A stretch of DNA of 63,863 nucleotides, the filler included, from Folioceros fuciformis (taxonomy: Eukaryota): NCBI GenBank assembly GCA_049999805.1. It is 10 parts of 10 records of this genome, joined end to end, with 100 filler letters (N's around TTAATTAATTAA, not from the genome) between each part and the next. Parts side by side here need not be neighbours in the genome. Positions count along the whole stretch, not along the records: positions 25,130 to 46,479 come from JBNGIO010002103.1; 9 more parts are not named here. One strand, written 5' to 3'. Below are positions 8,367-60,782 of this stretch, in pieces (within the stretch, counting starts at the first letter, position 1; each line of letters starts with the position of its first letter). The position numbers and the translations under genes were made by a program. Below the pieces are notes generated by a model. The model searched no databases and was not told where the DNA came from. It saw only the letters and a program-made list of their open reading frames with translations.

Positions 8367-8466
8367 NNNNNNNNNNNNNNNNNNNNNNNNNNNNNNNNNN
8401 NNNNNNNNNNTTAATTAATTAANNNNNNNNNNNNNNNNNNNNNNNNNNNNNNNNNNNNNNNNNNNN
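8367..8466. other. Artificial contig spacer N44-TTAATTAATTAA-N44 (stops in all six frames); identical spacers at 16834-16933, 25030-25129, 46480-46579, 48360-48459, 49491-49590, 53066-53165, 60683-60782, 62649-62748
   Basis: The same 100-nt N-flanked linker occurs nine times. Confidence 0.97.
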
Positions 8467-16306: not shown

Positions 16307-16933
16307 ACATTGATTGCATTAACCAAACTTAATCCTTAAACCCTAAACCTTGTTCTATTTATATGGAAACAATTTATGTTGAGTTGTGTTAAGTATAGTT
16401 TTTATTGCTATAGTATTTTTCTCATGAAGATGTCCCATAGTAAGTGAGCATAGTTTATCTCTTTGTATTTTTTAGAATACTATTTATGTAAAGGAGGATG
16501 TTCATGGTTTCTTCCCAAGGCTTCTCAAATTGGGGTAACCTCTTTGTCTATTACAATGATGTTTGCTTAGGCTTGGCTAGCCAAAGGGTCTTTCCACGCT
16601 TCCAACTATGGGGTGCGTCTTCAAAGACTTATAACCCATCTTACTCTTTGCCTTGTGGATGTGCAACACATTGGCATACAAAATACTGTTCATTACATTA
16701 TATTCATATAAGGAGTGTCTTTGTTATTTGCTCAACATTGTTCCCCTTGGGAAGAACCTTATGTGGGTGTCATGCTGTTGCTGTACGGGAAACAGAGCAC
16801 CTAAGACTCTATGACTGGATACTGACTAGAGCANNNNNNNNNNNNNNNNNNNNNNNNNNNNNNNNNNNNNNNNNNNNTTAATTAATTAANNNNNNNNNNN
16901 NNNNNNNNNNNNNNNNNNNNNNNNNNNNNNNNN

Positions 16934-22625: not shown

Positions 22626-25029
22626 TCTTCCTCGGATGAAGATTTCTCCGAGGAGAGCGATTCTTCAGAAGAATCAGCAGCAGAGACCTCTTCATCTTCA
22701 GCAGGGGACAGCCTAGAGGAGGAGTCCTCGGAGGACGAGGCTGTCAAGAAAAGACTGAAGAAGAAGGAGCAAGAGGTGGTTAGGCGGAAGAAGGAAGCAA
22801 GGAAGGCAAAGGATCTAGCTAAGGCCAAGCAAGAGGTGGCAAGTGCCAAGAGGGAGGTGGAGCAGGTCAAGAAAGAGGGTGAGGCTACAGCCAAGAAAGT
22901 GGAGCAGCAGGAGTCCAAGATGGAGGAGATGATGAGCAAGTTTGAGAAGTTTCTCCTCCATGCTATCAAGGAACATGAGAGAAGGAGGGCTGCAACTAGT
23001 GGCAGGGCTGACTTGTTTTGCTCCATTTGTGGTGAGCAAGGCCACACCAAGACCCATTGTCAAGGGGCCAAGGTGCATTTGCTGGCCTGTGAAGGGGAAG
23101 AAGAGTGGTCGGTGGAGGACTCCTACCAAATTCAGGAGTTTTCCCAAGGGCAGCAATATTCCAAGACAACCCATCCTTCCATTCTTCGAAATCCTATGGG
23201 CACGGGTAGTCGTAGCAACCAGGTGGGGAGAGTTGCTGGTCAAGCAACGGGGGTTGTCCAATGCTATAATTGTCGAGGATTTGGACACTATGCCAACAAT
23301 TGTCCATCAGCAACTAGGCAGGCCAATGGAGACTACGATAGGTTGTGCCAGGACTGCAAACAGCGGGGGCACGTGGCGGGCAGCGTGCTTTGTCAGAACC
23401 CTAGGAAGAGCGTGAGGATTGCTCAACCAGCGGTGACAGGGGTGCTGCAAGCAGCACCTCAAGGGGCTGCAACAGCCATGCATGTGGAGGACGCCCTCAT
23501 GGCTGTTTGGGAGGAGGCCGAGGCCAAGGTGCTTAAGGGGCTAGAAGGGTTGGACAGCATTAAGAAGGGTTACTATGGGGAGGCTGCAGCCATGGCGGTA
23601 TGTACCCGCAGTGGGAAGAGAAGGGGAAGGCAGTGGGGTGCCAAGAAGAAGGGGAAGGAAGTGGAATTTGCTATAGGATCGGAGGAGGAGAAGGCACCCC
23701 AAATGTGGAGGAATCATGTCGGGAGAAAGGAGACCAGGAAGGACAGACCCCCAAGGAGGAAAAATCAAGGGCTGGAGAGGGAGTAGCCCCAGCAAAGGGG
23801 GGAAACCTGGAATTTCCTCCAGATGTGAGGGGAGAGGTACTAGACATGATCCAGGAGGAGCTGGATAGGGCAGCAAAGGAGTCAGCACCCGTGGCTGCAA
23901 GTCTGCCACCTAGGGAGGTGGCAGCGGTGACCAAAGGCACCAATGGGGCGGTCCAAAAGCCATTTGATTTGGCTGGAGCCATCATGGACCAGCAATTTGC
24001 TGTTACCTTTGGTCAGCTCCTGAAGGATAACCCTAAATATCGACAGCAGGTCCGGAAGGCATTGCAGGAGGCCCAACCCAAGAGAAGGAAGAGGCTACCT
24101 AAATCAGGGCCAAGGTTGTCGGCTCCCATGGTCAACATGGTGTCCATGGTGGACCAGGGACCGGCTGAACTGCAAGTGGAAATTGCAGGCTGTGTGATTA
24201 AGAGGGTGCCGCTGGATACAGGTTCAGGGGTGAATATTATGACGGAGGATACCGCCAAGAAACTCGGATTGGAGATCGAGCACACAACCAAGGTCTTGAG
24301 GTTGGCCGATATGTCTAGAATGCAGCCAGTGGGGGAGCTGAGAGGGGTAACCACGACCATAGGGACCATTCCCTACCTTCTCGATTTTGTGGTCATTCAA
24401 CACAAGGCACCAAGCTACGACATCTTGCTGGGCAGGACTTGGCTGTATGGATCGAGGTGCAGGCTGTCATGGGGAAGGAAGGAGGTGGCTTTCAAACCAC
24501 CTGAATGGAACCCCAAGACAAAGGAGGGTAGGATTTGTTTGAGCTGGAGCCGGGATGTCTACCTCAGTGAGACCCCAACGGACACGGAGGGGTACACGTG
24601 GGGGACACAACTGATTTGGAGGAGGGGGAAGGGGAAGATAAATTCCCTTTTTCCCACATATCATGGACAGATGAAGGAGGACTACCGAAGGGATATTCCT
24701 TATACCCTGAACCGGGTCGAGTGTTTTGGGATCACCTTGGACTGCAACATGGTAGGGGCTGAAGCAGCAAACGTGGAAGGACAGGCTACTGGAGTTGCTG
24801 AAGGGAAGGGCCAGGAAAAAGCCTCCCATGCCAAGAGGGGTGTGAAGGAAGATGAGATGAGGGAAGGGGGCTGTGACCCAAGGTCTAAAGGGCTTGCTGG
24901 TGAGGATACAGAGGTCACTAGATTCACCTTCGAAGACCTATTCAGGGAATGGGGAATGAGGGAGGAAGATCCCCAAGAGCCGGAAGAAGGGTTTGGAGTT
25001 AGCTCTGCACCCGTGCAGCGTGAATGGGT
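22626..25029 (+). mobile_element. Ty3/gypsy gag C-terminus (three zinc knuckles) and aspartic protease; truncated by the gap
   Basis: CSICGEQGHTKTHC, CYNCRGFGHYANNC, CQDCKQRGH. Overlapping ORF 23600-25029 has VTFGQLL and protease VPLDTGSGVNIM...LRLAD...YDILLGRTWL. Confidence 0.85.
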
Positions 25030-25329
25030 NNNNNNNNNNNNNNNNNNNNNNNNNNNNNNNNNNNNNNNNNNNNTTAATTAATTAANNNNNNNNNNNNNNN
25101 NNNNNNNNNNNNNNNNNNNNNNNNNNNNNCTAATAACCAAACCAACTATTTCCTGGTCAATTAGCCTAATTAGGCGCAAAATAAAAATAAAAAAAATGAC
25201 CAGAAAATAAAGGAAAATGAGGGAAAATAAGTAGAAAAATAAAACCAAACCATACCGCTATTAACCCTTTTTCAACCAAAACAAACCACTACCCCAAACT
25301 TTGGAGGTTCTTAATTGGCCCGGCCTTTT

Positions 25330-27450
25330 GGTTCCTATCTTCGGACATTTGCGTGCTAGAACTAGGAATCGCAGAGTCCCCTGCCTTCCCCTTCGCCTTA
25401 GCTCTTTTCTTCGTACCTGCACTAGCGATACTCACCTATTCCGACAATTCGCAATTCTTCCACATTCCAAAAATCATGTCAACGTTATCCCAGGGAACTC
25501 CATTGCATCTTGCCACTTTGTAAGGAAGTGTCTGCATGTCAACCATTTTTTGTACCCAGTCCGTGTCGTGGTGATCGCCCCCTTCATCTGTCATCCCTAA
25601 CAACTTATAGAGGTTGAACTTCCATTTCATAGGGGGCTTCTCATCCGCGGAGAATGAGTCCAAGCAAATATGTCGAGCTCATCAAAACATACTTAACCTG
25701 CTCGATGAACCCCATTCTTTTCCTCTTGTCCACATAAACATTATGGTCCACATCTAGTACCCTCATTTCCTCTTCTGTAAGGCTAGCATAGACGTGGTCT
25801 TTCATCCATTTATACTCATCCTTAACAGGAAACATTTAATGCAGTTTCTGCATAGCTGCAAAAGAATGGTTCCCACCAAGCACACCCATACGATAATTTT
25901 GAGCAGTAATCTTCTCCGAAGAGACGTCCTCCTTCTTTGCCGCCTGCTTAGGGTCTATCATACACAGAAGAGGTAAGATACCTTCCTTCACAAATCCCAC
26001 TTGCATCTGTCTCACCAAACATTTCATCCAAGCTTCATCAACTTCTCTTATCTGAGCATCACATGTTATGAAAGAGGCCAGATGTAAAATGTCCACATGT
26101 AAATCAAAAGTTGTTGACCGATTCCTCTTTGCATGCACTTTCTTCCTTATAGCATTCAAGTGGTCCTCATCCTGTCCCAGCCTCTCCAGCCTTTTTGAGT
26201 CGGTTTCCACTACTCAAGTAGGCTCTTACTCAACAATCTATACAGTTCTCCCTTTCTTCTTCATCTTTTGTACTTGTAGATAGGGCTAACCATTTCCTTT
26301 TCTTCTGTGGAGATGTTGCTACAAGACAAGGTCAACAGTGTCTAGGTGAACTTCTGCGCTGGGTTAAAAGCTGTTGCTATGCACCAAAGGCATCCAACAA
26401 AACACACTGAGCAAATGCCTGGCGACTACTGAAAGCTATTACCAGAGGTCTTGTGTCATTGCTTCGCTGGGGAAGCAGACAACTTCAGCTGTCGCGCAAT
26501 TGGTGCGCTGGTCTATCTGCGCACCTGCTTGACTCTCTTTCGGGGAGGTGTAATCTCCATAGGGTAATCTGGGGCCTCATCTTCCTCCGCACTTGAATTG
26601 CGCCTAGCCTCCACAACTTTGTTGAGACTATCCTCAACCAATGAGTACTTCTCCATCTCCTTTCCTTCTTCCTCGCTATATACTGGTACGTCAGGGGCTT
26701 CGTCTTCAAAAAGCTCTGGTTGCATGCACAACATTTCCTGCCTCCCGATACCTAACCCTCCTTCATAGAAAACTGATGGCGCAAACTTCGCTCGTAAGGA
26801 TTGCTGTTGGCGATCTCCTACACGCTTAGCCACAAGCACCATGTTCTTCAGCAGTACGTCTTCCACACACCGCATTACAGTTCTACGAATTGCTCACCAC
26901 CCAATGTGTCGAACAAGTCATGATAGATTAGGTTTCCATGCAAATTACGAACCAAAATAATCAAACACAAATGAAATCAGTTGCTTACATCCACAATATT
27001 TTGGCACTCTTTAAGTGCCGTTTTTAACCACGTGGGTTTGCATCGCCTCAAAATGGCCTTCGCCACATTGACCACAACGAGAATATGTGTGTTGTAGCTA
27101 TAGCCGTCCGAGATGTGACTGGGTGGGTGTTTTGTTAAGATGAAATTCACATTTGTTTCGTCATCCACACCATCCACAGACACACACAAAATCCAACCGG
27201 CTCTGGCTACCTTATTGTCCTCTGGGCCTTGAAACCCATTTACCCATAAAGCAACTAGATGAACCCAAGGCAAAATGAAATCCTCTAGCTCGTCTTCGAC
27301 AACCAAAAACCACTCTTTGTTAGTATAATATCTCTTAGCGAGTGTGTCTTCCAACTTCTTCAACCTCAATCGCTCCATAAAGTCGTAGGCATTTGGAATG
27401 TTGTAATTCTAGCAGCCTCCCGTACTGCCACCCTGTGTCACATTTAGAGC
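25330..27450 (-). pseudogene. Disrupted gene encoding a ParB/Srx-like domain protein (probable transposon cargo)
   Basis: QIREVDEAWMKCLVRQMQVG...ILPLLCMID...YRMGVLGGNHSFAAMQKLH*MFP...HVYASLTEEEMRVL..DHN..MGFIEQ follows the ParB-like pattern R.(V/I)D...L...M / P(L/I)(L/V) / GG(N/Q)H..A / N. In-frame stops and frameshifts. Upstream pieces at 26513-26875 and 26977-27378 are on the same strand. Boundaries approximate. Confidence 0.6.
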
Positions 27451-29306
27451 CAAATGGTTAATAGGTACTCCGCTAGCTTTGGAATTTGATGCCTTGACGC
27501 TGCAAGTAGAGTTGTCCTTTCTCCCAAAAGCAAGTAGCGAATTAGGAGACACATCTTCGCAGATGAGCATTGGCAGACATTGTCCCTCTTTGTCACTATA
27601 ATGGCCAAATGATGCACAAGCAGCTGCTTTTGGCGCCTGTCTTTGCTTCCTTACACACGGAGAAGGCAGAACCGCTTGGACATCCATATGTGCATGAAGT
27701 TGTTTATTGTTCTGACGTCCCGTTGCCATTTCAAAAGTTCAATAAAGTAGAATGAGAAACACTGTTCACCACAACATAGCAGCAGAGACGATGATAATGT
27801 GCCAGCCGCAAAGTAAGAGGAAGATAGCCGAAATTCCAAATCTTGTTCCCAAAATAGTATGTGGAATTCGGACATGGCTCACTACATTAATAGCTTGATC
27901 AAGCTTGGATAAGCTTGCGATTCTTGATCAAGAGCTATTTCTAAATTAGTTCAAACATTCATAATCCACTGTCCATATGCTTCTCCATATGCAAGGCACA
28001 GAATTTCCGTTAATGTTGAACTATTAGAAGCAGTTTCTTCAAGAAGAGCAAGGCGAACGACGATCATTGTATATAATGGCCGACTCACCAATGTCGCCGA
28101 CGCTTAGGGAGTAGTCTCCATCGAACGACTAGAGCACTGGAGGTAAATTTCAGAGATTGTTGCGCTATGCTCAGTAGTTTTCAAGGTCATGTACACAACT
28201 GAAAGCTATGAGTATGATTCTGATATTGTGAATAGGTGTTGTGTTGTGCCGCTAAACATCGCACTCATGCATGATTCATTAGTTAACAATACTCACACCA
28301 CACCATATTACACACACCTTAAACACTGCATGATGGTGCTACAGCTCTATTAAGAGTGAAGCATTTGCTTCCTTCAATCTCCACAAAATCTCCTCCACCT
28401 GCATCCACACGTCTCAGAGCTGTAACTTGGCTTCTCAAATCCTCGATCGGGTCACATGATCTTGCACACTGCACACACGCACATCTCAACCGAATTTCCA
28501 ATAAGAGAATGCTCCCTCAAGAGAAAGCCTATTCCCAAAAAGCAAGACAATACAAGCTTACAACTACAGCGGACACTGTTGAGCTAGGCTTTTATGCCTG
28601 CTACTTGAGACCTGCTGCAGCCACATCCACACATCTAGTTGTGCGTCTATTTAGTTGACTTTATATTATATTATATTTTCTAATCATTTTCACTAAATAG
28701 TTATTAATTATCACTAATGCCATTCATTGGCATCACTTAATTATTAACTAATTACTATTTGCATGCATCTAAGCGACAGCAGACAATCATGCTTGACATA
28801 GGAGATAGAAGGTCACCGTTTTTACTAAATCTTCTAGATGAAGTGCATACGTACTTAAGCCCTTCTCCTGGGAGAACTTCAATTGGAGTTGCCCTTTGGA
28901 AAACGACTCCTTTTCGACTCGGGGACAACGAATTCATCTTAGCATGAGACATTGTTGGAGCAGGATTTGGGGTTTTAGCAACCACTGGTTAGTGTAGAGA
29001 AAATGTTTCCATGTTGCAAGTAGAGGAGGATATGGTTGACTGTGAAGACAGTCATTCTAGAAGTCAGAAGTGTATGAATTTCGGAAAAGAACCAAGTCAG
29101 TGGAGGAGCTTCAATCTAAAACTTGTTTCAGAATCTTTCATCGAAACACCAAATAACCATCGCTGAGGTCGGAAAAAAAAACTGTCAACAATTCCTGAGA
29201 CTAAGTGTTCTAATTTGCGCATTATCGCGAATTATGTTGTGGAAAACAATGTTTGTGGACACTTGGTAAACCTGGTTTTAGAGAATTGTAGTATCGTTTT
29301 CTGTAG

Positions 29307-31825
29307 ATGTGCAGAACAGAGCAAGAAATGTTTTTGCAAATACATTTCGATGTCGAGAAGACTAATAATGCACGACCTATAGCTGATCCATTTGTAATTG
29401 GGTTAGTTAAAATTAAATGCTGCAGAGACAATTTTAGAAGAATTTTTTGCATTGGTGCTAACACATATGTGGCAGTGAAACATCAGGCTTTGGGGAACAT
29501 TGTTTGGTTCGGGGCCATCTGCGTTGATAAGCGGAGACCAGGTTACGCTGAGGCGACGTGCATATGGATGGATAAGTTGTTTCTTCTTATTGCAGAACGA
29601 ATGCCAATGTTGAGGTTTACCATCTTCCAGACTCGAATACAAAGGAGGAAATTTTCATTGAGTACAAACGGCAAATGATGAGAGCCGAGCAGTACAGCAT
29701 TTCGTACTCTTATTTCTATCAATTGTGATCTTCATACTTTCCTAAAGTGCAAATTCCAAAAAACAATAGATTTTCTTTGAGTACTACTTGCGATTACCTG
29801 AAAAGGAACATTCCCTCCAAGTTTGATGAACAAAAGCAAGTTACATCATGTCTTTCAGTTTTCTAGACAACAAATGCTTGACAGTTTTATTTTCATAAAA
29901 ATGACAACTAAGTGCAAAAGTCATTGGAGTTTGCCAATCTACCTACGCACTCTAGCTACAGCATGTTAACGTTTGCTGGTAAACCGGCGAACTCATGTTA
30001 CAGCATGGAACAGTCTGACAGCCTTTCAGATTGAGTTACTTTTCAATTGTTTCGTGTGATCACTCAATGCCTAAAAATTGGCATTCGTTATGGATAGAGG
30101 GGTTCGAAGCACACTTACGAGTACATTGTCAAAGATTGAAGGCCGAACATGAAAAGAGTATGAAGCATCCAGTGAAGTGCTATGGCAATCCAGGAAAATA
30201 TATTGGGTTGTCCATTGGTGGATTAACATAAAACTCAAGTTCCTCATTTTGTGTGCCTTCCGAAAGATTTGGCAAACATTGATCTTATTGATGTACATGT
30301 TGTGGGATGCATGGTGTACAATAGTACTATGGTGTAGGAGCTTTTCATAGAATATGGTAATATCAGGAACGATGCGAACCTGACGATTTCAATTATCTAG
30401 CATGCGATACATGCGTACACAGGACTTCTTCGAGAGGTTTCGTATTTGTAGTTGGACAACACGGCAAGGGAAAATAAAAACACGTTGATATTTTCCTATC
30501 TCAATATGTTAGTGGAGAAAGGAATCTTCAAGAAGGTGAAGATGGGGTTTCTGTTAGTGGACCACACTCACGACCAGGTGGACCAAATGTTTTCTTGGTT
30601 TTCTACTGCTGTGGGTTGAAAAGAAGCTTTGACTCTACCTGCACTCATTGCTGTTATGCAGATCGCTTATACACCAACCTCAGTTGTGCGTGAAGTGAAG
30701 GAGGTGCTTCACTTTCGGCGATTTATGTGGCCTATACCTTACGGGAAAGTTGGTTATTAGACTGTATTCGCTGTTCAGCCGTTGCACAACATTTCTTTCC
30801 AACATCAGTTCAAGATCACAAGAGAGAGCCGAGTAGGTCATGGCTTAATAACAGTGATGAGTGGAAAGTAGTATTGCATAGATCAATATTGGTCACCGGA
30901 TGAGGGTATCGGGTTACTGAAGCATATTCTGGACAAAGAAATAAAAACAACCCCATTTATGCATCTACAATCAAGGAGCAAAAAACAAAAGATTGTTGCG
31001 GACAACGTGCCTACATACGATTTAGCACAAATCAGGTCAAAGTTGGATCTTAATTTGACACAACACTTGGGACTAGGCGAGAACTTATGGTGGGATAGGG
31101 TTTGGGCAGAGCAAGAGGCTATTGTGCAAACAATAAACTTTGGTATGGAGATGGACCTCCATTGCTCGTGGCGATGGTATCATCGAGAAGACGTAGAATT
31201 AGTGAACACACCGGTAACTGTTGCAAACGAATTTGTCGTTGAGAATCCACGTATCCGTGAAGTTCCGAGAAGAGACATGTATGTTGGTGCATATTGGAGG
31301 GAGCCGTAACTCTAGGACAATCGAGAAAGTTTGAATGGGGACATCACATAAATAGAAGCATGCCATATGATTGATGTCCTATGCAAGACAAACAAAGACA
31401 ACGGGCCTTTTTGGATAGCTAGAGTTTTAGAGGTTGATGTCCACTGCAAAAACCCATATGTCAAAGTGCACTCATGGGTCACCAAATGTTCAAATGCTTT
31501 TAAAGGTTGTTACCAAGAAGAGATGATTTTACCTCATCAAGATCCACCTAAAGAGTTGCGAAGTGGTCGCAGACGAAGGCCGACCAAAAGACTTTGCAAT
31601 CATATCGATACGTTATCCATCGAAGACACTTTCATTCTAGCATATGGTTTTGACTTGACACGACAAAAACAGCTTCGTTCTCGCACACGGAACCTTATTC
31701 ACAAAAACGTGTACGTGTTGAAATGCGACCAAGGAAGCATTCCGCCTAAAATTGACGAAGCCGAGTTGGATGTTCAAACCAAAAGTATTTTGAGAAAAGA
31801 TAGAAGATCACTCAGTGCGAACTGA
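29307..31825 (+). pseudogene. Decayed DNA transposase of the LDN...ENKN / GHTH.D.DQ type (Sola-like, DUF7869-type by recollection) with a C-terminal beta-barrel-like domain
   Basis: Across frameshifts: WMDKLF..AERMP, YHLPDSNTKEEIFIEY, ISYSYFYQL*SSYFPKVQIPKNNRFS..TC, PGKYIGLSIGGLT (degenerate IDGMD), NDANLTI, L*LDNTARENKNTLIFSYLNMLVEKGIFKKVKMGFLLVDHTHDQVDQMFS (~30450-30600), NISFQHQFKI, then PFWIARVLEV..VKVHSW..ILAYGFDLT. Confidence 0.8.
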
Positions 31826-33149
31826 TGTACAGTTCAGTTGTTAATACGAAAGTTCTTAGCATAGGAATATGTTTTGTGGTATATCGGTGCATAGATCATG
31901 AGCTTGCATCGGTAGACCAGCGCACTGTTGTGGCTCCCTGCGTCGGAATAAAGGTAAAAATACGATTGACTTGATTTGCTATGAACGAAATGAAGTGGAA
32001 AACAAACAAACAAGACACTCAGTATCGAACATGAAATCAGACAAAAAATTAACGTTGTAATACCCACATGATTTCTAATTTTAGTCAAGAATTTGGATAG
32101 AAGTATACCCGCAAATCCACATATATTGATAAATAGCATGATAGATTTGGTATTACACAAGGCATTTTCATGCATGTTTACGCATTGTTGAAAATAAAAA
32201 CACGAAAATGTAGATACATGACACAAATTTTGAACAAGAAAATCTGGCGAAGTCCAAAAAGACGGAATGTGATCGTTTTGGTTAGACCTTGTTCAAAGAT
32301 GGGATGGACATGAGGTGCTCACCTGAATAGCTCACAGCACAACAGCAGATTAGAATGTCTTAAATCTCGTACAAAACCTGCATCACCAGCCGAGTAGGCA
32401 GGACTGAGGCTGGGTTTACTCTAGGGTGGTCATGACCACCTTGTCAGGAAATGGGGAGGCAGGATTGGGTGGTGCATGTAAAGCCCTTATACACTGTGCG
32501 GTCAAGGTAGCTTCTCTCACTTCTGAAACTTGTCAGTAAGGTGCGGGTAGCTACTAGCACACCCTAACACACCCAACATAAAAAAACTTCGATGCAATTA
32601 TATACTGACCCGTTGCATATTTAACAATGTTATTACGGTCAATGATTTACTAGGCACAGTACGTTTCAATACCCGTTTCATTTTATTACTTCAGCAGCCC
32701 ACGAAACATACTTCTTCCTCAGACCAACTTCATGCACTTCATTTTGGTTAAGCAAGTTTCCCGCTCGTCTTCCACAAAGCTCTGTTCTGCACTTGGTTTG
32801 CTTAACCAAGAAAGACATGGATCCCTTTATTCGTCAGCCTTGTGAAACAATGTTGTCCTACGTAAGTGGTGGTTTCAGCAGTCCAGATGAGTGGCAAGTG
32901 AGTGGCCTGTCACAAGGCTCACAAGTCAATAGCTTTTCACCGACGACCAGTTTTTCTTTGTCACCTTTCACAATGCCCATCCTTGGGGCGTTTATCATTA
33001 GTAATACCTTGCCACCAGCTGGTATGCAGGGTTTGGCAGCAGGCCCTTCCTTGTAGGTACATCCAACACCTCAACCTGCAACTCATCTCCCCCAAGATGA
33101 AGACTGTGTGCAAATCTCTCCAGTGCCCACCAAATGACGAAGGCGTGCT

Positions 33150-33649
33150 GTGAAGAAAGAGCAATTCATGAAGACAGAGGAATTTTCAGCTGGTGGCAAG
33201 AAAGGAGATGCATGGAAAGAGCATCATGTGATAAACCTCATTCTTGTAAGAGGTGGGATGGAGGCCGAATTTGACAAAACTCCAAAACAAGGTTGGCCTT
33301 TTGCTACAATTCAAGAGTTAGTAGCAGCAAATTCCAGTTCTTGTTTAACAATTTTTCTATCCCTCCATGGTTTGACATTGTTGATCTTTATATGCATAAT
33401 CGTGCTCACGTTGTGTGTGAGGCGCATGCTTTTTCACACAAGAGGTCAAGTGTGGACAGTTCTACACTAAGTGGAGCTAGTAATGACGACATCGTTAAAA
33501 AGAGAAAGACCTCTTAAGAAAGTTCAAGTCATGCTATCAGCTTGTTGAGCTCCATGTCCAAGAAACTAGAAGCCCTTGAAGAGAAGAAAGTAGCACTATT
33601 GGAAACTTTAGTTGCCTCTCTAGCCACAAGTTTCAAGAAACAATCTTAG
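33150..33649 (+). pseudogene. Remnant of the Myb/SANT (trihelix) partner ORF of a PIF/Harbinger element
   Basis: WKEHHVINLILVRGGMEAEFDKTPKQG and a C-terminal short coiled coil (KKLEALEEKKVALLETLVASL). Convergent with the Harbinger transposase, as expected for this superfamily. Confidence 0.5.
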
Positions 33650-33675
33650 TTTATATTTGAATTTAGAGTTTGACT

Positions 33676-34360
33676 GCAACTTTCAGGGTTAGTAGCGGCT
33701 GCTAGAGGCATGTTCTATCAGAACTAAGACCACCATCGTGTAGAGATTGTAAAGCTCTGTACGTGCGTGTATAAATCAGGATTTCTTAGGGTCCAAACTT
33801 CACCTGATTTGCACTCAAAGTTTGACTCTCATTTTATATAAACAAAGTCTCACAGCAACTTTGAGTGCTCATAGCAACTGCTAAACACATGTTCCATAAA
33901 AACTAAGACCACCGTAGTGTTTAGCTTGCAAAGGCCTACACGTGGGTATATAAATTATGATTTCTTAAGGTCTAAAAGGAAACTGATTTATCATCAAAGT
34001 TTGTCTTTTATTTTCAATACACAAAGTCATGTTGCAACTTTCAACGTTCGTAGCAACTGCTAAACGCATGTTCTATAAAAACTAAGACATCATCGTGTAG
34101 AGCTTGCAAAGCCCTACACGTGGGTATACAAAACATGATTTCTAAGAGTCCACACGTCAAGATTTGCCATCAAATCTTGCCTTTTATTTTTAATGGGCAA
34201 AGTCTGGCTGCATCTTTGAATGTTCATAGCAACTACTGGAGTCATGCTTTGTAAGATCCAAGTCCATCATCGCATAGAGCATGTAAAGGCCTACGCATGG
34301 GTATATAAATCATGCATTGTAAGAGTCTACATGTGAACTGAAATTCACTTCAAAGAGTTC
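33676..34360. repeat. Diverged tandem array, ~179-bp unit x ~3.8
   Basis: Unit starts GCAACTTT/GCATCTTT at 33676, 33855, 34034, 34210. Shared blocks TAGCAACTGCTA, AACTAAGAC, CCTACACGTGGGTATA, CAAAGTC. Confidence 0.85.
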
Positions 34361-34505
34361 CCTCCTCATCATGAGACTTTACCTCCATATCCTCCCAAGA
34401 AACTAACTTCACATTTTTCTGGCTTCTGGTTTCGTAGAGGACCCTGGCTAGGTTATGGATTCCCTTTACTCCAGCTTGATATCCCGACAAATCCAATGCT
34501 ACTAG

Positions 34506-35744
34506 CTATTGCCTTCCATCAGGATCTACAACCTTATGTCCATTTCCCACGCTAGGTCGCACTCCATTTAGCTCATACAGGGTTTCTCGAGCTACTCTTG
34601 TTGCTTCTTCATCGCCACCATCGACATCATGAACACATGAGTACGCTGCCTTATCCAACCAATCTTGATGAAAAGCATCCTTATGGATAATGCACATGTT
34701 GTATAGAATCAAGTAGGCGTGAACAATAGCAGGGATGTTTTGGAGCTCCATGTCCAATCTTTTTAGTAAGCATCTCCACTTGGCTTTTAAAATTCCAAAT
34801 ACTCTTTCCACAGCCATCCTAGTGGAACTTTGTTCAAAGTTCCAATGCTCCTACACTAGTGTTAGACCATCCTTTGATCCTCTATAAGGCATCAACGTAT
34901 AGAGCCTGGGCCAATAGCCTGCATGTCCTACAAGACAATAGGGTCCTAGCTTGCCTACAACACAATTTTGTCCAAGTTCAGATCTAGTGAATAGATTCCA
35001 ATCATTCAAACTACCTGCCCATCCGAAGTCATAATCCCACACTAAGCAATTTGCAGTCACTGTTAATAGAAGAAGTTAAGAATAGAAACCTTTCTTGTTA
35101 TAGTAGTCACCCTTGTTTTTGCAAGATCCAATAATGGGAATATGACTCCCGTCTATAGCTTCAATCACATACGGAATCCCTTGCAGTTCACGAAACTCAG
35201 ATGCATACTCAACCATTTTGCTCTTTGTAGGCCACATGATATATGTATCATGGAACTTACAAACAAGTGCTCTACAAAACTCCAAAGTAGCCTTACCAAC
35301 TGTAGATGTGCTATATCCATAACAGTCGGCAAGTATCTTGAGAGTGTCTCCAGTTGCTAGCTCCTCAAGTATCTTGAGAGTGTCTCCAGTTGCTAGCTCC
35401 TCAGTGCCATGGCAATTCTGGCATCCAAGGAATGGCTTTCCGGAATGTGGTGTCTTTTTTGTGGGCCAATTTCAGCACACAAATATTGGAAAGTGGCTTT
35501 GCTCACTCGACAACGCTGCCCGAACATTTAATCTGTGTAAGACCCAAGAAGGGATTGATTTGTGAAACCATGGTTTCGATTCACACACCATGTTGACCGT
35601 TGTTTTCTTTGTCTCCCACTAGACTCCAACAATTCTTGATGCAAAGCCACTGCTGCAGTAGATATGAATGTCCGTAGGAAGATGAACAAATCTCGAGAGC
35701 ACACAACACACTCAGAGCTAATAAAATCTTCTCTCTACAGCCAT
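34506..35744 (-). pseudogene. PIF/Harbinger (HARBI1-like, DDE_Tnp_4) transposase, disrupted
   Basis: RVSKATFQYLC, LATGD..YGYSTSTV, IPYVIEAIDGSHIPI, YYNKKGFYS, GWAGSLND, LVGHAGY, STRMAVERVFGILKAKWRCL, LYNMC. Multiple stops and a 36-bp internal duplication at ~35330-35401. Confidence 0.9.
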
Positions 35745-35747
35745 TTT

Positions 35748-36190
35748 ACAGCGTTGCCAATTCTGTGTCCTCATGGCTATCCAAGTCCATCACTGTAGGA
35801 ATTTGGAGAGCCATCTCACTGTCCTCCCCTTCCGTGTAGAAGCCTTCTCGACGCCCATTCTGCAGCGTTGCCAATTCCATGTCCTTGCAGCTATCCACGT
35901 CCATCACTGCAAGAATTTGGAGAGCCATCTCAGGCTCCTCCCCTTCCATGTAGGAGCCTTATGGACGCCCATTTTTAGCGTTGCCAATTCCATGTTCTTG
36001 CAGCTATCCACATCCATCACTGCAGGAATTTGGAGAGCCATGCAGCTATCCACATCCATCACGGCAGGAATTTGGAGAGCCATGCAGCTATCCACATCCA
36101 TCACGGCAGGAATTTGGAGAGCCATGCAGCTATCCACATCCATCACTGCAGGAATTTGGAGAGCCATCTCATGCTCCTCCCCTTCCACGT
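35748..36190. repeat. Nested tandem repeat: ~114-bp unit x3, with a 42-bp sub-unit amplified x4 in the third copy
   Basis: GCGTTGCCAATT at 35751, 35865, 35978. GCAGCTATCCACATCCATCACTGCAGGAATTTGGAGAGCCAT at 36000, 36042, 36084, 36126. Confidence 0.9.
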
Positions 36191-36757
36191 AGGAGCTTTC
36201 TCTACGTTGTGGCCTCAACCCTAAATTGGTTACGAAATTATAACAAGTTGTTAACATAAAGAGGTGCTGCAAAGACAAGATGTAAATACCTCTCCATGAA
36301 CCGTGATGCCGGGAACGGGATGTCAGAAAATAGAGTTCGACCGGTCAAGTGTACAACCACGTACAACCACGTCTATGTCACCATGTGTCAGGGTCATAAC
36401 CGGCCGGTGGGTGAGCAGTGCTTCGTGGCACCGACGGCCCGGTCATAGTGTAAAACCCGGCCTGAAATGTAGCTTGGCTTTCTGACACTGTAGAGACTCG
36501 TAGGCCATCGGATCGTTGGTCGGATAGCCAACCATTATTTCTGGGGGTTGCGTGAAAACTGCTGCTCTCTCGAGCTGAGCGAGCAAAACACAACGCCTGA
36601 ACAACAGACAAACTTTTTCCTTTCACATGCTAGTGACAGTCTCCGGATTGTGCGAGACAGTCGCCGCATTGGGCGAGACATCCTAGAATCTTCCCTGTCA
36701 CTTAGAATCTACGTCGTCGACATCGAAGACTCTGAAGTTTACAGAATACGTACCTTG

Positions 36758-39700
36758 TTACATTATAGCTGCGCAACGATGGCACTCGACTTTGCTCAAA
36801 TCTTCGTGGCATTTATGTTCTTGGATATGACCACAGGGAAGCCTGCTCTCTACCTGCTCGAGGCAGGTATCAAGGCACGGCTGACCACACATTCTCGGGC
36901 AGCTGTGGCCGCAGATGAGCTGCTTTGGGCACCGCTCTTCGCACAGAAGTTGGTCCAAGTGTTCTGAGCATGCTGCCTCTTTTCTGTGGCGACATACAGA
37001 GAGGGTCCTTGTCATTGGAACACGACATGGGGGGCAAGCTGCTCCCTTGTGGCAAGTGGCCTTGCACCTATGCTGGCAGGCTGCATGTTTCTTGCAGCAT
37101 CTCTTACGACATACAATCTGATCATGACCACCAGGATGGCACCGTCGAGGGCAAACATGGCCACATCCTATCCGGTAGGTGCAGGGCCTGCCACAACCCC
37201 CATCCCTTACCTGAGCATAATCTAGTGCACGTGCCACCCTGGTCACCTTCCATGGGTGATTCTGGCAACGCAGGGACAAATGAGAACCGACGAGACCTTT
37301 TTGGGAGAATCTTCGTACCACTGTCCTCCAGATTTCACTTTTTTCAGACAGGAGCGCTGCATTTCCGAACAAATAGAGTCCCAATCGAGCTCTGGAAATG
37401 GCAACGCATACTCTGTTAGATAGATTGAGGAACCCTATCTTGCCACGGCCTTTTTTATCCTCCAGGTGGTTGCTGCGGACCAAAGAAAGAAGAATTATGT
37501 TGCTCTCCTTTCCCTGAAAATCATCAACGGTAATGACTCTGGGAAGTCGTTTGGAGGCTTCCCTCTGCTCTTCTTGCTCTCCAATAGACGCATCAAGGCC
37601 TGGTGCAACAATCCTTGCTGGCAACGTAGCTTCAACACGGGGATTCAGAAGACTTTTAATCTCGTGCACCTACAAATGCAGACACGTTTAAAAGCATCAG
37701 GCAAATGTTGCTAGATCCCATGGGGCCATATGCTCCAAGGATTTGAGATAAGCACATGAGTCTCTTACCTGACCCGTATACATACACAAAATCGTGATGT
37801 CTGAAGCAGAGTATGTACCCTGGTTGAGCAGATACAGACAAAACTCCACAACAATCCTGGCTTCTCCTTTATTCACCTTGGAGCATGTTCCGGTTTCTCC
37901 GTTGGAGCTCTCCTCTCCTTTGTGATTGAGAAAGAAAACGTTCTCTGTCACACCTTGAACATCTGGATACATTCTCACATTGCGATGGTCCTTGAGATGA
38001 GGATAGAGGGGTTTCAAGAGCCTTGAGATACAAGGTCTCATTCGTCTTTGAACATTCAAAGATTTGTACTCTACTCCGCTCTTGACAAGCCTTTCGAACA
38101 TGGATACATCAAGCTTTTTTTTATCTGCCAACCTGTGGACTGCGACATGTGGTCGTAGTTGTTCATGGTCACCTATTAGGATGACATGCCTTGTATGAGG
38201 GCTCACACTTGCAAGTATGTGACTTTCCAGGACCTCAGCAGCTTCCTCGACTATCACTATCTCCGACTTCAGTGACAACAGCACGTCATGGTATCGGGCA
38301 GCCGCAGTGGTGGTCATGCCCACCACGTTTGCTCGTCGCAGAAGGGATAATTGGATTTCTTTCTCCACTTCCAGGCTGTTGCTACACGCCTCTTCATAAT
38401 CCTTGGCAAGTTTGTCGATATGTTCCTTAGCATCGTTCTTTATGGCTCTCAGCCAAAGTTTGTGCAACCGCACTCGATATGCCTGGGGCAGTGCCCATAC
38501 ATCTGTGACATGGATGAAGGAATCCAGATCCAGTTGTTGGAGTTCTTCCTCAGTCAGTACAGTATCTTGCTGTTGCAGTATGTTGCCTTGTGAGCCATCT
38601 TGAGTTTGCTCGTCTTCTACTTGCTGGAGAGTTACTTCATGATCCGATTCGTTTTCCGGCTGCAGTATAAGTTGTGCAATAGTATTCAATTCAAGCGTTT
38701 CCTGCCTGTCCTCATCCTCATCCAGTAATTCGTATCTAAATTCTGATGTGATCGATTCTACATCGGCTGAATCCATTCCCTGGAGGATTGCTTCATCATC
38801 ACGTGTATCCACGTCAAACTTGTCATATTCGTTTTGGCGTATCAAGCCAGTTACCTTTGTTTGGTCATTCACGACTACCGTTTCGTTTCTCCTGCTGGCC
38901 TGTAGGAAATCCCTAGGTGCTCCAGACAGCCAGATCTGCACGATGTGAATGTCATCAAGCCATCCTCTATCCTTGCAATCCAATAATGACGCTATATGTT
39001 GTGGGGCAGCAACTTCCTGTAGTGCGGTCCGATCAACAAGCATCTGCGAAAGGAAACTACTCATCAGTACAACTCACACACAGGACGTACAGCAAAGCAA
39101 AAGAGAACTATTGATAGGCATAGCTCAGGAAGAGGCCGAACAGCACTGAAAACTTGCACCTTCAATAGCGAGGCGTATTTCCCATCGTTAACGATCCGAC
39201 TTCGAGCTGCTGACCTTGCGGCCCATGCCTCCTGAGAAGCCCGACGATGGCTACAGTGAATGCTCTTGGATTGACGTTGTTCATGTACAAGTGCAGCCAA
39301 AGTCTTCGACTTCAGAACTTCACATTTGCTTTGCCCTCCCAAGCGAATTAAGTTGTTCTCAAACTCATGGATGCCCATGAGAAACTGGTCAATGGCGTGA
39401 TTGGTGTAGGACACCACCAGAATAGGTCCACGGACATCGTCTTCGCGGACACTGCTTTCCGACTGGGCTGTGGCATGGCCAGTGAGACTACTTCTCTGTT
39501 CCATTATAGAATTGCTCTGTTTCTTCAGATTCTGTAGCAGAATCCTGACAAGCAACAACCCAACAAACGTCTTACCTGTCCCAGGGGGGCCTTGAATGAT
39601 GGCTAGCTCCTTCGTGAGGCCGTGCTTCAGAGCCTCTCGCTGGCTTTGATCTAGAGCACAGGCCTTCCACTCAGGCCAAGTTGATAATATGTCGAAGGAA

Positions 39701-41474
39701 TCCCTTCCAAGTTCTGTCATCAACTCAGGGAAGGCCGATGAAAAACAGAACTCCCCGTTCTTGGGCCTGGTTGCTAGGTAGCTTGGTGGCCGTACCTTGC
39801 GCTCTAAATCAATTAAGTGCTTGGTGAAAACTAGCTGCCCGCACATCTCCTCCCGCTGCAAACTTTTGAGAACATGCGCGTATGGTTCAAAGTAGGCAGA
39901 ACTTGACTCCACCATTACGAAGCGCTGGCTTGGTTCGAACCAATGGCAACAAGCTGATTCGCGAAGCTTTGACGTGGTGTCCTGAAGGAGGCGGACGTTC
40001 ACTATTCCTTTGGAAAGATCATCCAGCGAACGCCCCGCCACTACACCCCAGAAATGAGTTGCAAATTTGTCCTCAGAGAAACAGAGTAAGGAGCCAAACA
40101 TCAACCGTTTGTCTAAGTCCCTCCTTATCCGTCTCCCGTCAGCAACCTGAAAGTGAACCTGACGAGAAAGAGCACCAACGTGGAAGCGTTGGAAATGTTT
40201 CATCGTTGAAAGAGACAAGAAAAGCAACAACAACAATCTAGACTATGTTGAGATGCAGCTGCACATCGTACTTCATACTATGCGACGATGAGGAGCATCA
40301 ATATCCTACCTCATACTGTATGCCTTCTCGACCGAATCTTAAGCCAGGCTGAACGTGAACATCCACGTAAAGGTTCAGGTGCTGAGTAGTGTCACCTGCG
40401 CGTTCTGCGTGATGATTCTTTAACTCCTTTATGCCTTGTCTAAAAGAATCGATATAATCCTCCCGCAGGAGCTTGTAATGTGTCTGGAGGTACTCCAAAA
40501 CCGAGGTATAGCGTCTTCCGATCCTATTGATGGGTAGACGTTTGAAAGCATTGCCTACTTCCATTTCATATGTGGTGGGCAGAATTGGAATCGCCCAGAA
40601 CGTATCTTCCTACATGAGATGAGATGAGATGAGGGAGAGCAAGCTTTTAAGGGATGAATCAGCAGCATAAAATGTACAGTCGACTCAGCTATCAAAAAGA
40701 AAAGGAAAGGCTGCGCACTTGCTACCTTGGGGAACTTGTTTGAACTTGAAACTGCTCTCGAACGCTTCAACTTTGCCCTCTGCTCCAACAACCGTTTCAC
40801 ATCTGCTTCGAGAGCATTCATCTGGGGATCTCGCGTTGCGACATTTCCAACAATCTCATTCATTCTCACCAGCTTTTCAACCTCGGTGGTGATAGTATCA
40901 AGAGGAACTTCCTTCCAACCATCTGATGTCCGGCTCAGTATCTCCTCCACAAGTTGGACACACGCGTGCAATTGTCTCGGCATCCGATTGCACAAGCCTT
41001 GAATGTAAGCTTGAAACTGCGGCATAAACGGCGATCCTAGCAAAATCTCATACATCCGATTTGTCTTGTGTCTCATCATGGAGCTCCGGATCTCCTCTTT
41101 CGTCAAGAGCTCCACAATCCTTGTGACCACAGCTTCCGTCAGATATGTTCTTCCAACCAAACTCACTAGATTCCTGAACCCGGAACTTCCTTCCCCGCCC
41201 AACACTTCGATGTTGGTGGCGGCTGCATGCTCTATGTGCTTCTGAAGCCAGTTGAGCACCTGGGTCAAAGACATGGATGAAACATCTTCAACTAGTTCTG
41301 CAAGCCATACCCTTTCATCAACATTGGTCTACACAGACGCAAGTAAAAATTGACAAGAGCAACGCAGATTGACAAGAGAGATGAAAAATGTTTAAAACAT
41401 TAAAAAAAAACCAAAAACAGACTGCAACTGCAACTGCAGCTCACCATGTGCATCCTGATGCGATGCACCTCCAT
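36758..41474 (-). CDS. ZNFX1: ZNFX1-like (NFX1-type zinc finger) UPF1-family SF1 helicase; exons approx 41474-41445 (tentative), 41328-40726, 40609-40310, 40147-39160, 39043-37770, 37669-36758
   Basis: IPILPT..YLQTHYKLLREDY, KRLMFGSLLCFSED, MVESSSAYFEPYAHVL, LDQSQ..LAIIQGPPGTGKT, YTNHAIDQF, VVGMTTTAAA, IVEEAAEVLESH, LIGDHEQLRP, SMFERL, QRRMRP, TVDDFQGKE, NRVCVAISRAR, then CQNHP..GGC and repeated CGH.C...CH NF-X1 fingers. GT-AG introns. The start codon is uncertain. Confidence 0.88.
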
Positions 41475-42737
41475 CGTTCAGGACATGGGGGTACATACAA
41501 CATGCACCGAATCTGCATGTCCCGAGTTGGAAATACTTGCAAGGCCCACTTCTCTTGGACTCCATGGTTGTTCTCCCACTTCAGGACAGTACCAGAACTC
41601 GGGGGCAAGTAGAGAGAAGCAGCCGCGGCGTAAGAGACTCCTCACTACTTCAACACTTTTCAATCAGAGGAGAGGAGGCCGCAGTAATGTGTAAGCGATT
41701 ATGCTGCCAGATGGTCGAAGATCAGTAGAACCTCCAGCCGAGGCGGATACGAATCAAGAGTTACCATCACGACTCCATCGATGTTGTTGTCCAAGCCGGG
41801 CACGCTTACACGCAGAGACACGGGGGCCGCGGTAAGATACGTATAAGTCGGGATGTTGCCATACGGTCCAAGCGGACTGAAGCCTCCAGAAGTGAGCGCC
41901 TAACACGAGTCTGTAGGGACCATAACGACGTCACCACAAGCTTGGCACGCTCGGGCGGAGAGATGGCGGATGGACGCTAAACCAGAAGCACGGAACAACT
42001 TCTCCCCCACTAATAGGCACAGACTTCAAAAGTCCGTTTGTAGTAAGGTCTTGTTGGCACGGTAGGAAGGACAGAGTATGTTCATGCAAGGGAATGGCCG
42101 GAATACCAAGCGCGTAAGTCGTGCTTGTGACTGCTTGGTTATTTACGACAAGCAGTTCGGTTTACGGTATGCACATCGCATCCCTTGGTTTGCCAGCCTC
42201 GGTTCCCTGGGAATGGCAAGTTGGACTTCCGTGGTTTGGGAGAGAAAAGGAACGTGCGGCATGTCAGCAAATCCCTCATCAACCACGGGGCGGCGATGGT
42301 AATTTCCCACGGCGCGCTCCAACGGTGACTCATTTTTTTTTTTGGACCGTACAGGTGGGATGTCGTTGGTTTTGGCGCTGGCGTTGGCCATTTCCATTTG
42401 TACAGTTCGTCTGACACCGGAACGGCTCAGGCATGGGGAAGACAAGGTTGTCACTATTCTGGCACCGACACCTGGGACAGTGGTGGAAGATTGCATGCAC
42501 GAGATTCCACGGCTTTTGTAGAAAAGGATTTTTCCTCGGGCTTCACGACGTGCCAACGGCACGCAACTTGTGGAAAGGGGATTGATTTGTTTTTGTAAGA
42601 CAGAAGCATCTTGTAGTGGCAAACGTGCGACTCCGCATTTCAACGGGCATGCAAAACACCTAACTGGCTCGCTGGAGAGGCGACACCTGCTGGACCGGTA
42701 GAAAAGTGGCATCTATTCCCTTCGTGAGTTTGCTGTT

Positions 42738-42935
42738 GCTGATGCTTGTTCCTCTCGTTGGATTGTAAAGGGTGTGGAGTAAACTATTGCAGCCGAGCTT
42801 TATGGCAAGACTCGGTCTGTAGTGCGTTGATGTTACGGGTGCTCGTGCTTGTGTCTCTCGGTGGATTGTCAAGGGCGTGGTCTAAACTATTGCAGTCAAG
42901 GTTTATGGCAAGACTCGGCCTGCCGTCCGTAGATA
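42738..42935. repeat. Two-copy direct repeat, ~103-bp period
   Basis: AAACTATTGCAG...TTTATGGCAAGACTCGG at 42781 and 42884. Confidence 0.75.
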
Positions 42936-43426
42936 GGCGATTGATAGTTTCGGTTTCCTCCCGCATCCCGCATTCTCCATCGATTCCCTTGATGTCCAAT
43001 GCGAGTATTGCAGACTGGGTGTGGAGTGGAATGGCTGCTTCAGGGGATGATCTCACCCTTGATCTTTGGAAGGAGGCTGTCGAGTGCATCCCTTGAGCTC
43101 GGGTAAGTGTTTGGATCGCACTTTTTCCAAGCTTTGCTATCTTTCCCGTGGCAATCTCGCACAATTGCCAGGGGCAATTTTCCTCTTTTTCAGTGACAAT
43201 CTCGCTCACTTTGCAGTGGCAATCTTGCTAACTTTCCAGTGGCAGACTCGCTCACCAAGTTGCCGCATGATTCTTGAATCTCCCCGCAGTTTCCCTCCCG
43301 GCAGTTTGATGGGGTTGCTCATCCTTCTCCCTGCTCCGCCATTACTTGAATCGTTTGGAGAAGCGCCGTAGAAGACGCTGCCGTCAATGCTCTCATCCTC
43401 GAGTCCTGAGAGTGGCTCATTTCATA

Positions 43427-48359: not shown

Positions 48360-48459
48360 NNNNNNNNNNNNNNNNNNNNNNNNNNNNNNNNNNNNNNNNN
48401 NNNTTAATTAATTAANNNNNNNNNNNNNNNNNNNNNNNNNNNNNNNNNNNNNNNNNNNN

Positions 48460-49490: not shown

Positions 49491-49590
49491 NNNNNNNNNN
49501 NNNNNNNNNNNNNNNNNNNNNNNNNNNNNNNNNNTTAATTAATTAANNNNNNNNNNNNNNNNNNNNNNNNNNNNNNNNNNNNNNNNNNNN

Positions 49591-60682: not shown

Positions 60683-60782
60683 NNNNNNNNNNNNNNNNNN
60701 NNNNNNNNNNNNNNNNNNNNNNNNNNTTAATTAATTAANNNNNNNNNNNNNNNNNNNNNNNNNNNNNNNNNNNNNNNNNNNN

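Follow-up and report, generated by a model that had tools for sequence, protein, structure and literature searches.

Remains of a probable two-gene DNA transposon in Folioceros fuciformis: a decayed DUF7869 transposase gene head-to-head with a truncated ParB/Srx-fold gene

The stretch of DNA analyzed in this study, hereafter called the window, comprises 63,863 nucleotides of the genome of Folioceros fuciformis (GenBank assembly GCA_049999805.1). It consists of ten contigs chained by linkers of the form N44-TTAATTAATTAA-N44 that hold stops in all six frames, and sequences separated by a linker are not genomic neighbours. One of these contigs, JBNGIO010002103.1 (positions 25130–46479), contains in full the two genes considered here as parts of a possible DNA transposon: a ParB-like pseudogene on the minus strand (25418–26213) and a transposase pseudogene on the plus strand, whose homology extends over 29235–31822. 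The original prediction, made from the sequence of this region, had described two decayed open reading frames (ORFs) lying head-to-head across a spacer of ~1.9 kb, and this description holds in each respect. Both genes lie on the same contig, both are interrupted by stops and frame changes, and the gap between the long ORFs runs from 27408 to 29307, or to 29235 if it is counted from the start of the transposase homology, which amounts to ~1.8–1.9 kb. Five of the six motifs quoted at that time are exact, whereas the sixth, given as 'HLP..TK', reads HLPDSNTK in the N-terminal half of the transposase, with three residues instead of two in its middle.

The minus-strand pseudogene carries the motifs REVDEAWMKCLVRQM (26004–26048) and VLGGNHSFAA (25854–25883) in a stretch of 191 codons that is open except for one in-frame TAA (25836–25838). 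A frameshift follows near 25680, and the gene resumes in another frame at 25651–25418, where residues 77–153 of two related proteins, P0012 and P0170, can be aligned (tblastn, E-value 9e-21 jointly with the domain match). A phmmer search with the ParB-like piece among 1.84 billion representative sequences recovered 32 relatives at E ≤ 1e-3, four of them at E ≤ 1e-10 and the best at 1.9e-20, and the number of these relatives together with the best E-value argues that the gene is not a chance match. The relatives share an invariant GGxH (G113 and H116 in alignment A1) and a near-invariant HN; in the window, the former is part of VLGGNHSFAA and the latter is found at 25722–25745.

We modeled the ParB-like domain with AlphaFold2 (AF2) on the basis of the family alignment and obtained a predicted local distance difference test score (pLDDT) of 86.4 and a predicted template modeling score of 0.80. 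All rows listed by Foldseek for this model are proteins of the ParB/Srx fold, namely ParB, Noc, PadC, sulfiredoxin, KorB, pNOB8 ParB-N, SerK/SbnI and Atu1540, the best of them with an E-value of 1.0e-3 and a probability of 1.00 and none below 0.001. Structural alignment by VIA-align placed the Myxococcus ParB bound to cytidine triphosphate (CTP; chain 7bnr_A) at the top, with a Z-score of 10.2 and a root-mean-square deviation of 2.1 Å over 95 residues, and 25 of 143 chains reached Z ≥ 8. The ParB/Srx fold foreseen for this gene is hence confirmed at the level of the predicted structure. Membership is by fold only, as no ParB sequence model matched in Pfam (ParBc, E ≤ 10), PHROG or NCBIfam and searching the PDB with a profile built from 21 members of the family gave no sequence at E ≤ 10.

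Partition ParB proteins possess an arginine-rich nucleotide-binding box, GERRxRA, after the glycine. The signature of the family found here is GGxH(S/T/C)xxA, and its alignment shows no conserved arginine in this place, with the equivalence to the ParB position judged by eye. Since the arginines of the ParB box are absent from this signature, it appears doubtful that the domain would bind CTP or act by a CTP-clamp mechanism. Upstream of the domain, two further ORFs on the same strand (26513–27408) may represent 5′ exons of the ParB-like gene, given junctions that by eye are compatible with GT..AG splice sites. They yielded no Pfam match, none of 19 proteins of the family aligned to them by tblastn, and ESM Atlas gave no usable match for 26980–27408.

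On the plus strand, region 30224–31822, when read through its stops, matches the Pfam family DUF7869 (PF25273) with an E-value of 1.4e-40 over positions 1–177 of the 192 in the profile, and a score of 139.4 bits against a cut-off of 26 argues against a chance match. By tblastn, homology is traceable through 29235–29606 (frame 2), 29582–29839 (frame 1) and 30064–30225 (frame 0) and then from 30218 to ~31750 in the frame of the second of these stretches again. It thus changes frame at ~29600, between 29840 and 30060 and at 30220, amounting to at least three frame changes, and ten in-frame stops interrupt the frame of 30224–31822. Recognizable motifs are CCGKQC (29235), FPKVQIPKNNRFS (29738–29776), LDNTARENKN (30452–30481) and FLLVDHTHDQVDQMFS (30548–30595); the core region, which includes LDNTARENKN, also contains VDHTHDQVDQMFS. 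The DUF7869 family is characterized by the invariant motifs IDGMDQ, LDNTxRENKN and GHTH[D/E]xIDQ. The first of these is degraded to IGGLT followed by a stop in the window copy (30211–30228), by which the first invariant Asp motif is lost; the D, G, M and D of IDGMD are kept in 23–24 of 24 relatives. Moreover, an aspartate precedes HTH where all 24 relatives have a glycine. Five of the ten stops fall in alignment columns that are mostly glutamine or arginine in the relatives, i.e. they correspond to C-to-T changes, such as a methylated and silenced repeat may be expected to accumulate.

A word-index search with the decayed transposase as query gave one match among 3328 candidates, and its intact relative P0050 was used instead; of 5188 candidates, 213 proteins then reached E ≤ 0.001. 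The window translation (P0001) is 33–34% identical over ~505 amino acids to P0050, P0051 and P0068. Among the best 120 of the 213 proteins, the named hosts are a liverwort (with many proteins), two ferns, Ginkgo, Chara braunii, sea urchins, amphioxus and a clam, and a query of ESM Atlas with P0050 returned only DUF7869 or unnamed clusters. The invariant acidic columns of the family reside in IDGMD, LDN and HTH[D/E]xID. By its Pfam match, the plus-strand gene is probably a decayed transposase of the DDE type. An AF2 model of the transposase (pLDDT 77) aligns with its residues 2–152 to the cores of Mos1, Metnase, Sleeping Beauty, TnsB and retroviral integrase at Z-scores of 4.6–5.6. Of the RNase H-fold transposase originally proposed, the DDE type is supported, whereas the match to the fold itself is weak; an RNase H fold is likely. 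Foldseek with the whole model listed weak BAH-domain rows and no transposase, and the family profile matched PDB sequences only at E-values of 1.1–3.4 (the BAH domain of EBS and a designed binder).

The C-terminal part of the transposase (31352–31700, about residues 365–489 of P0001), with the motif PFWIARV at 31406–31426, is modeled as a beta-barrel with weak similarity to BAH, Tudor and chromo readers of histone marks (Z 5.0–5.8, with 5.8 for BAH). Such a barrel, bearing the conserved motif PFWIAKV...V.WY, closes DUF7869 transposases in general, and the PDB profile match to EBS has an E-value of 1.1. From these models, the barrel may be a module for chromatin targeting.

The ParB-like gene breaks off after ~270 codons at a high-copy repeat unrelated to it and at the end of the contig: its homology is lost at ~25418, the repeat has begun by 25310 and the end of the contig follows at 25129, in agreement with the earlier suggestion that the gene was cut off before a C-terminal effector. 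The repeat (25130–25310) is A/T-rich, 25–27 contigs diverge beyond its border at 25310, and it replaces the 3′ part of the gene and is itself not gene sequence. As to the effector, a DNA methyltransferase had been proposed, and relatives of the gene indeed carry one. The beta-class N6/N4 DNA methylase domain PF01555 was detected in 9 of the 46 relatives scanned (4 of the 32 phmmer relatives and 5 of 14 further family proteins), many of those without a match being fragments. The DNA-methyltransferase PHROGs 67 and 498, both of phages, match four of five full-length relatives, and the methylase part also matches CcrM-type bacterial models, far below their cut-offs. The closest relative of the window gene, P0012 (45% identity over the core), is collinear with residues 183–477 of the ParB-methylase protein P0023 up to the point where P0012's own contig ends. 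Gene models of the ParB-methylase family number 16 in Chara braunii and four in the fern Adiantum, and the family is also present in a nemertean and a hemichordate.

Fusions of ParB and methylase domains are typical of phages and plasmids, and this, like the PHROG and CcrM-type matches of the relatives, would suit a ParB-like gene left behind by an integrated virus or by bacterial DNA. All named relatives are eukaryotic, however, the domain is matched by none of the PHROG, NCBIfam and Pfam ParB models on the sequence level, no virus-like genes lie nearby and two scans of viral contigs remained without matches, so that we consider such an origin the least probable of all those weighed here. A decayed or domesticated host gene that never traveled with a transposon would agree with the annotation of relatives in Chara, a fern, a nemertean and a hemichordate, where they count as ordinary hypothetical proteins, but it is very improbable in view of the multiple copies both in this genome (depth three to seven times that of single-copy DNA) and in Chara, of the stop, frameshift and repeat insertion that break the gene, and of a patchy, transposon-like host range of the family.

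Because the transposase has suffered the stops, frame changes and loss of the Asp motif described above, and the accessory gene a stop, a frameshift and a truncation, the window copy is dead and neither of its genes is functional. We consider it probable, with moderate confidence, that the locus is a fossil, truncated copy of one cut-and-paste DNA transposon with two genes, which would then share one pair of termini. Support for this comes from genomic repetition, assessed as the summed contig depth in the organism's own sequencing runs, a measure that is not a copy number. Single-copy DNA has a depth of ~10 (9–13 to the right of 36468), compared with 31–67 over the ParB-like gene and 56–62 over the 5′ half of the transposase; both genes are therefore multi-copy, as expected of transposon genes. 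The numerous gene models of the ParB-methylase family in Chara braunii and Adiantum point the same way, the C-to-T type of five transposase stops suits the decay of a silenced repeat, and the Ectocarpus element Sola1-1_Ec32, described below, supplies a precedent.

Further support is provided by two proteins from JGI contigs. The ParB-methylase P0023 and the DUF7869 protein P0127, which is 27% identical to the window transposase over 412 amino acids (E-value 1e-38), are each recorded on one JGI contig of exactly 8915 nt, and for both, the named relatives that come nearest are from Chara. P0023 and P0127 probably lie on the same contig, as judged from the equal sizes only. A rough estimate puts the chance of such a coincidence at 1–2% when JGI short contigs alone are counted. 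Searches of metagenome contigs confirmed no locus for P0023 or an alignment of five family proteins, and searches of viral contigs found none for P0127 or P0023.

Several observations weigh against a single two-gene transposon. The agreement at 8915 nt is a coincidence of sizes, of which ~0.3 would be expected over all pairs of short contigs. A search for terminal inverted repeats (TIRs) in 25130–35000 found 16 inverted pairs of at most 33 nt, none of them at plausible ends of an element; the contig cannot include the left end, and the right end falls between 31.8 and 36.47 kb, where inspection by eye for ends of the AACCG/CGGTT type near 36.38–36.47 kb revealed nothing convincing. Comparison of 25130–34500 with the whole window detected an internal tandem array only and no second copy. 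The depths of the two genes are partly unequal, with 126–216 over the 3′ half of the transposase against 31–67 over the ParB-like gene. At least three other families of repeats are nested in the region, so that two genes might have become neighbours by chance. In Chara and Adiantum, the DUF7869 models among the best 120 of the 213 proteins (two and one, respectively) share no scaffold with the listed ParB-methylase models, a comparison to which we give no weight, since annotation frequently passes over transposon genes. For the transposase itself, none of 48,161 chains reached Z ≥ 8, which served as the guide for noise, the best being 5.6. Finally, the methylase is not visible at the locus, as no methylase-like sequence occurs anywhere in the window; judged from its relatives, the ancestor of the window copy would have had one.

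These observations bear on the most serious competing explanation, that a dead DUF7869 transposon came to lie by chance beside a fragment of a different mobile element bearing a ParB-methylase gene. The first 11 kb of the contig are a pile of repeats (a ~2600-fold repeat, a ~40-fold repeat, a Harbinger fragment and tandem arrays), and this setting, like the uneven depths of the two genes and the lack of adjacency among the listed Chara and Adiantum models, would accommodate such an event; so would the red algae, in which accessory genes with ParB and PF01555 domains move between transposon superfamilies according to a recent preprint (bioRxiv 10.1101/2025.02.11.637652). Nevertheless, the same pair of families is probably present on one 8915-nt contig of a distant lineage, the same divergent layout is published for a Sola1 element, and the spacer becomes short once the nested ~40-fold repeat is discounted. 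We thus regard chance neighbourhood as unlikely, albeit as an explanation with a sizeable share of the probability, and prefer a single two-gene transposon.

The features of the contig are compiled in Table 1. Within the spacer, the separate repeat spans ~27798–28798; bins 27798–29131 of run X1 have depths of 432 and 408 against 56–62 on the flanks, and 14 contigs diverge beyond 28798. No structure of TIRs or target-site duplications and no coding potential was recognized in this repeat (27600–29000 examined). To the right of the transposase, depth ranges from 36 to 136 up to 36468 and exact single-copy contigs begin at 36376/36380, which sets the border between repeated and single-copy DNA at ~36376–36468. 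Other genomic copies, seen as run contigs, join 32449 to 35622, 32535 to 36198 and 32933 to 35814. Since the first and last of these joins bypass the intervening DNA, the block ~32450–35621 is a probable nested insertion of ~3 kb. It carries a tandem array of 3.4 units of 179 bp (33709–34314) and, on the minus strand, a fragment of a PIF/Harbinger transposase (34506–35471; DDE_Tnp_4, E-value 1.7e-9), and further arrays of 114-bp and 42-bp units lie at 35741–36167, just inside the border to single-copy DNA.

Table 1. Positions of features along the window (depth in run X1)
Feature	Positions	Strand	Evidence or remark
Linkers between contigs	8367–8466, 16834–16933, 25030–25129, 46480–46579, 48360–48459, 49491–49590, 53066–53165, 60683–60782, 62649–62748		
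High-copy repeat	25130–25310	.	Depth ~26,000 versus ~10 for single-copy DNA
ParB-like gene, segment after the domain, shifted frame	25418–25678	−	tblastn; WDNVDMIFGMW at 25460–25492
ParB/Srx-fold domain and following helices	25641–26213	−	phmmer, AF2, Foldseek, VIA-align
Two open stretches upstream of the ParB-like gene	26513–27408	−	ORF list
Upstream ORF	26513–26893	−	126 amino acids, acidic
Upstream ORF	26977–27408	−	143 amino acids
Divergent spacer with separate ~40-fold repeat	27409–29234	.	Depth
Transposase, N-terminal half, three frames	29235–30231	+	tblastn with fern and other DUF7869 proteins
Transposase, core and C-terminal region, one frame, ten stops	30224–31822	+	Translation P0001, Pfam, tblastn
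Repeated DNA right of the transposase	31823–36468	.	Depth, contig joins, tandem repeats

Beyond the repeated DNA, the same contig harbors a single-copy ZNFX1-type gene on the minus strand (36758–41328) with several long open exons, which encode a ZNFX1 domain, an AAA_11/AAA_12 helicase and NFX1-type Cys-rich fingers, and on the plus strand a gene for a GT47 exostosin-family glycosyltransferase (43310–44953). A contig of run X4, the one run guessed to be RNA, covers the GT47 gene at a depth of 79 and skips 43102–43288, which has GT..AG ends and is likely an intron upstream of the GT47 coding exon. The same run gave no contigs on 25797–27797 or 29132–31799, which is no evidence either way on expression of the two pseudogenes. 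Run X3 differs from the window (25130–45129) by 1673 changes, of which 622 are C>T and 742 G>A, and looks like a bisulfite- or enzyme-converted library; its data could reveal whether the fossil element is cytosine-methylated. The adjacent contig in the window contains an unrelated open frame (23564–25029) with a gag-type aspartyl protease of retrotransposons (Asp_protease_2, E-value 3.4e-5).

In an intact element of the proposed kind, the DUF7869 protein would act as a DDE/D transposase that binds the inverted ends of the element, excises it and re-inserts it elsewhere. The second gene would be transcribed divergently from a shared spacer of ~0.8–1.8 kb and would encode an accessory protein composed of an N-terminal ParB/Srx-fold domain, a helical middle part and a C-terminal beta-class amino-methyltransferase (PF01555) producing N6-methyladenine (6mA) or N4-methylcytosine (4mC). 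Most likely, this protein would bind the DNA of its own element via the ParB-type module and methylate it, by which the element might be marked, protected or tuned in its activity. Authors of studies on brown and red algae likewise propose that accessory proteins bind and modify their own element (PMC12477816; bioRxiv 10.1101/2025.02.11.637652).

The pairing in the window is a fossil, truncated example of a recently recognized kind and not a new kind. The kind was published in 2025 for brown algae and had earlier been noted for green and red algae, so that the claim of an under-described eukaryotic architecture, put forward in the original prediction, has been overtaken by the work of Dinatale et al. 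on Ectocarpus Sola1 (PMC12477816). For streptophytes, our literature search, with most subscription journals outside its reach, found the combination of a ParB-methylase with a transposon in papers on brown and red algae only. What is added here is a fossil copy from a genome that finds its best matches among streptophytes, evidence for a wide occurrence of the fused ParB-methylase family in Chara and ferns, and a probable identification of DUF7869, i.e. a suggested name and function for a domain of unknown function. The original prediction had called the transposase 'Sola-like'. By analogy, DUF7869 probably corresponds to the Sola1 superfamily of Repbase, for which we rely on the precedent of the Ectocarpus Sola1 element and on the host range (bryophytes, ferns, sea urchins and amphioxus); the name DUF7869 itself was not found in the literature searched.

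Few transposons bring along a DNA-modifying enzyme of their own, and those that do bear on how mobile elements escape from or exploit host silencing. The accessory gene with ParB and methylase domains was called 'intriguing' in the brown alga in 2025 (PMC12477816), and the same protein family is multi-copy across the plant lineage (Chara, ferns and the genome studied here) and reaches some animals; it adjoins a DUF7869 transposase in the window and probably also on one JGI contig. A broader and more tentative idea, which we hold to be possible and less likely true than false, is that the fused ParB and amino-methyltransferase protein is no occasional passenger but has since ancient times been inherited together with DUF7869/Sola1 transposons, as their second gene, in brown algae, charophytes, ferns, other streptophytes and perhaps marine invertebrates, and that this superfamily writes a 6mA or 4mC self-mark against host silencing. 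If this were true, such elements would be an overlooked source of DNA methylation other than 5-methylcytosine in genomes of the plant lineage. The intact gene models of Chara and ferns are candidates for probing 6mA/4mC activity and binding sites.

Among characterized systems, the closest counterpart is Sola1-1_Ec32 of Ectocarpus, an element of 21.5 kb in which a gene for a ParB-like and DNA-methyltransferase protein of 1104 amino acids lies opposite the transposase (Dinatale, Craig et al., Genome Biol 2025, PMC12477816). Both this element and the window have the ParB-like gene on the strand opposite to the transposase. Sola1-1_Ec32 is complete, with imperfect TIRs of 282 bp, AACCG..CGGTT termini and a 4-bp duplication, whereas the window copy is dead and lacks the left end and the methylase; the two are likened by description and not by sequence. 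The best BLAST match of the Sola1-1_Ec32 transposase is a moss Sola1 (PMC12477816), hence the lineage exists in streptophytes.

In the giant Plavaka elements of red algae, the accessory genes PAG2 and PAG3 encode a PF01555 methylase and a protein with a ParB domain, and such genes ride on EnSpm/Plavaka, Mutator, Zisupton or Fanzor elements (Petroll et al. 2025, bioRxiv 10.1101/2025.02.11.637652). They resemble the family of the window in that PF01555 and a ParB-type N-terminal domain occur in giant DNA transposons. In PAG2 and PAG3, however, the domains reside on separate proteins (methylase with SET, and ParB with a 2-oxoglutarate oxygenase), whereas they are fused in the family described here, which is partnered with DUF7869. 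Tandem arrays adjoin the ParB gene in the red-algal elements; arrays that may belong to the element are also present in the window (35741–36167).

The same pairing is known from bacteria and phages, where ParB domains are linked or fused to N6A/N4C methylases, e.g. in phage ParB-terminase loci (Iyer, Zhang and Aravind 2016, PMC4738411), whereas the eukaryotic family has diverged too far for any ParB sequence model and bears the signature GGxH(S/T/C). Bdelloid rotifers possess N4CMT, another nuclear beta-class methylase (PF01555) of a eukaryote, which has bacterial ancestry and marks transposons (Rodriguez et al. 2022, PMC8885841). It is encoded by a host gene present in a single copy, carries a fused chromodomain and is directed against transposons; the family found in the window, in contrast, is multi-copy, ParB-fused and apparently borne by the transposons themselves.

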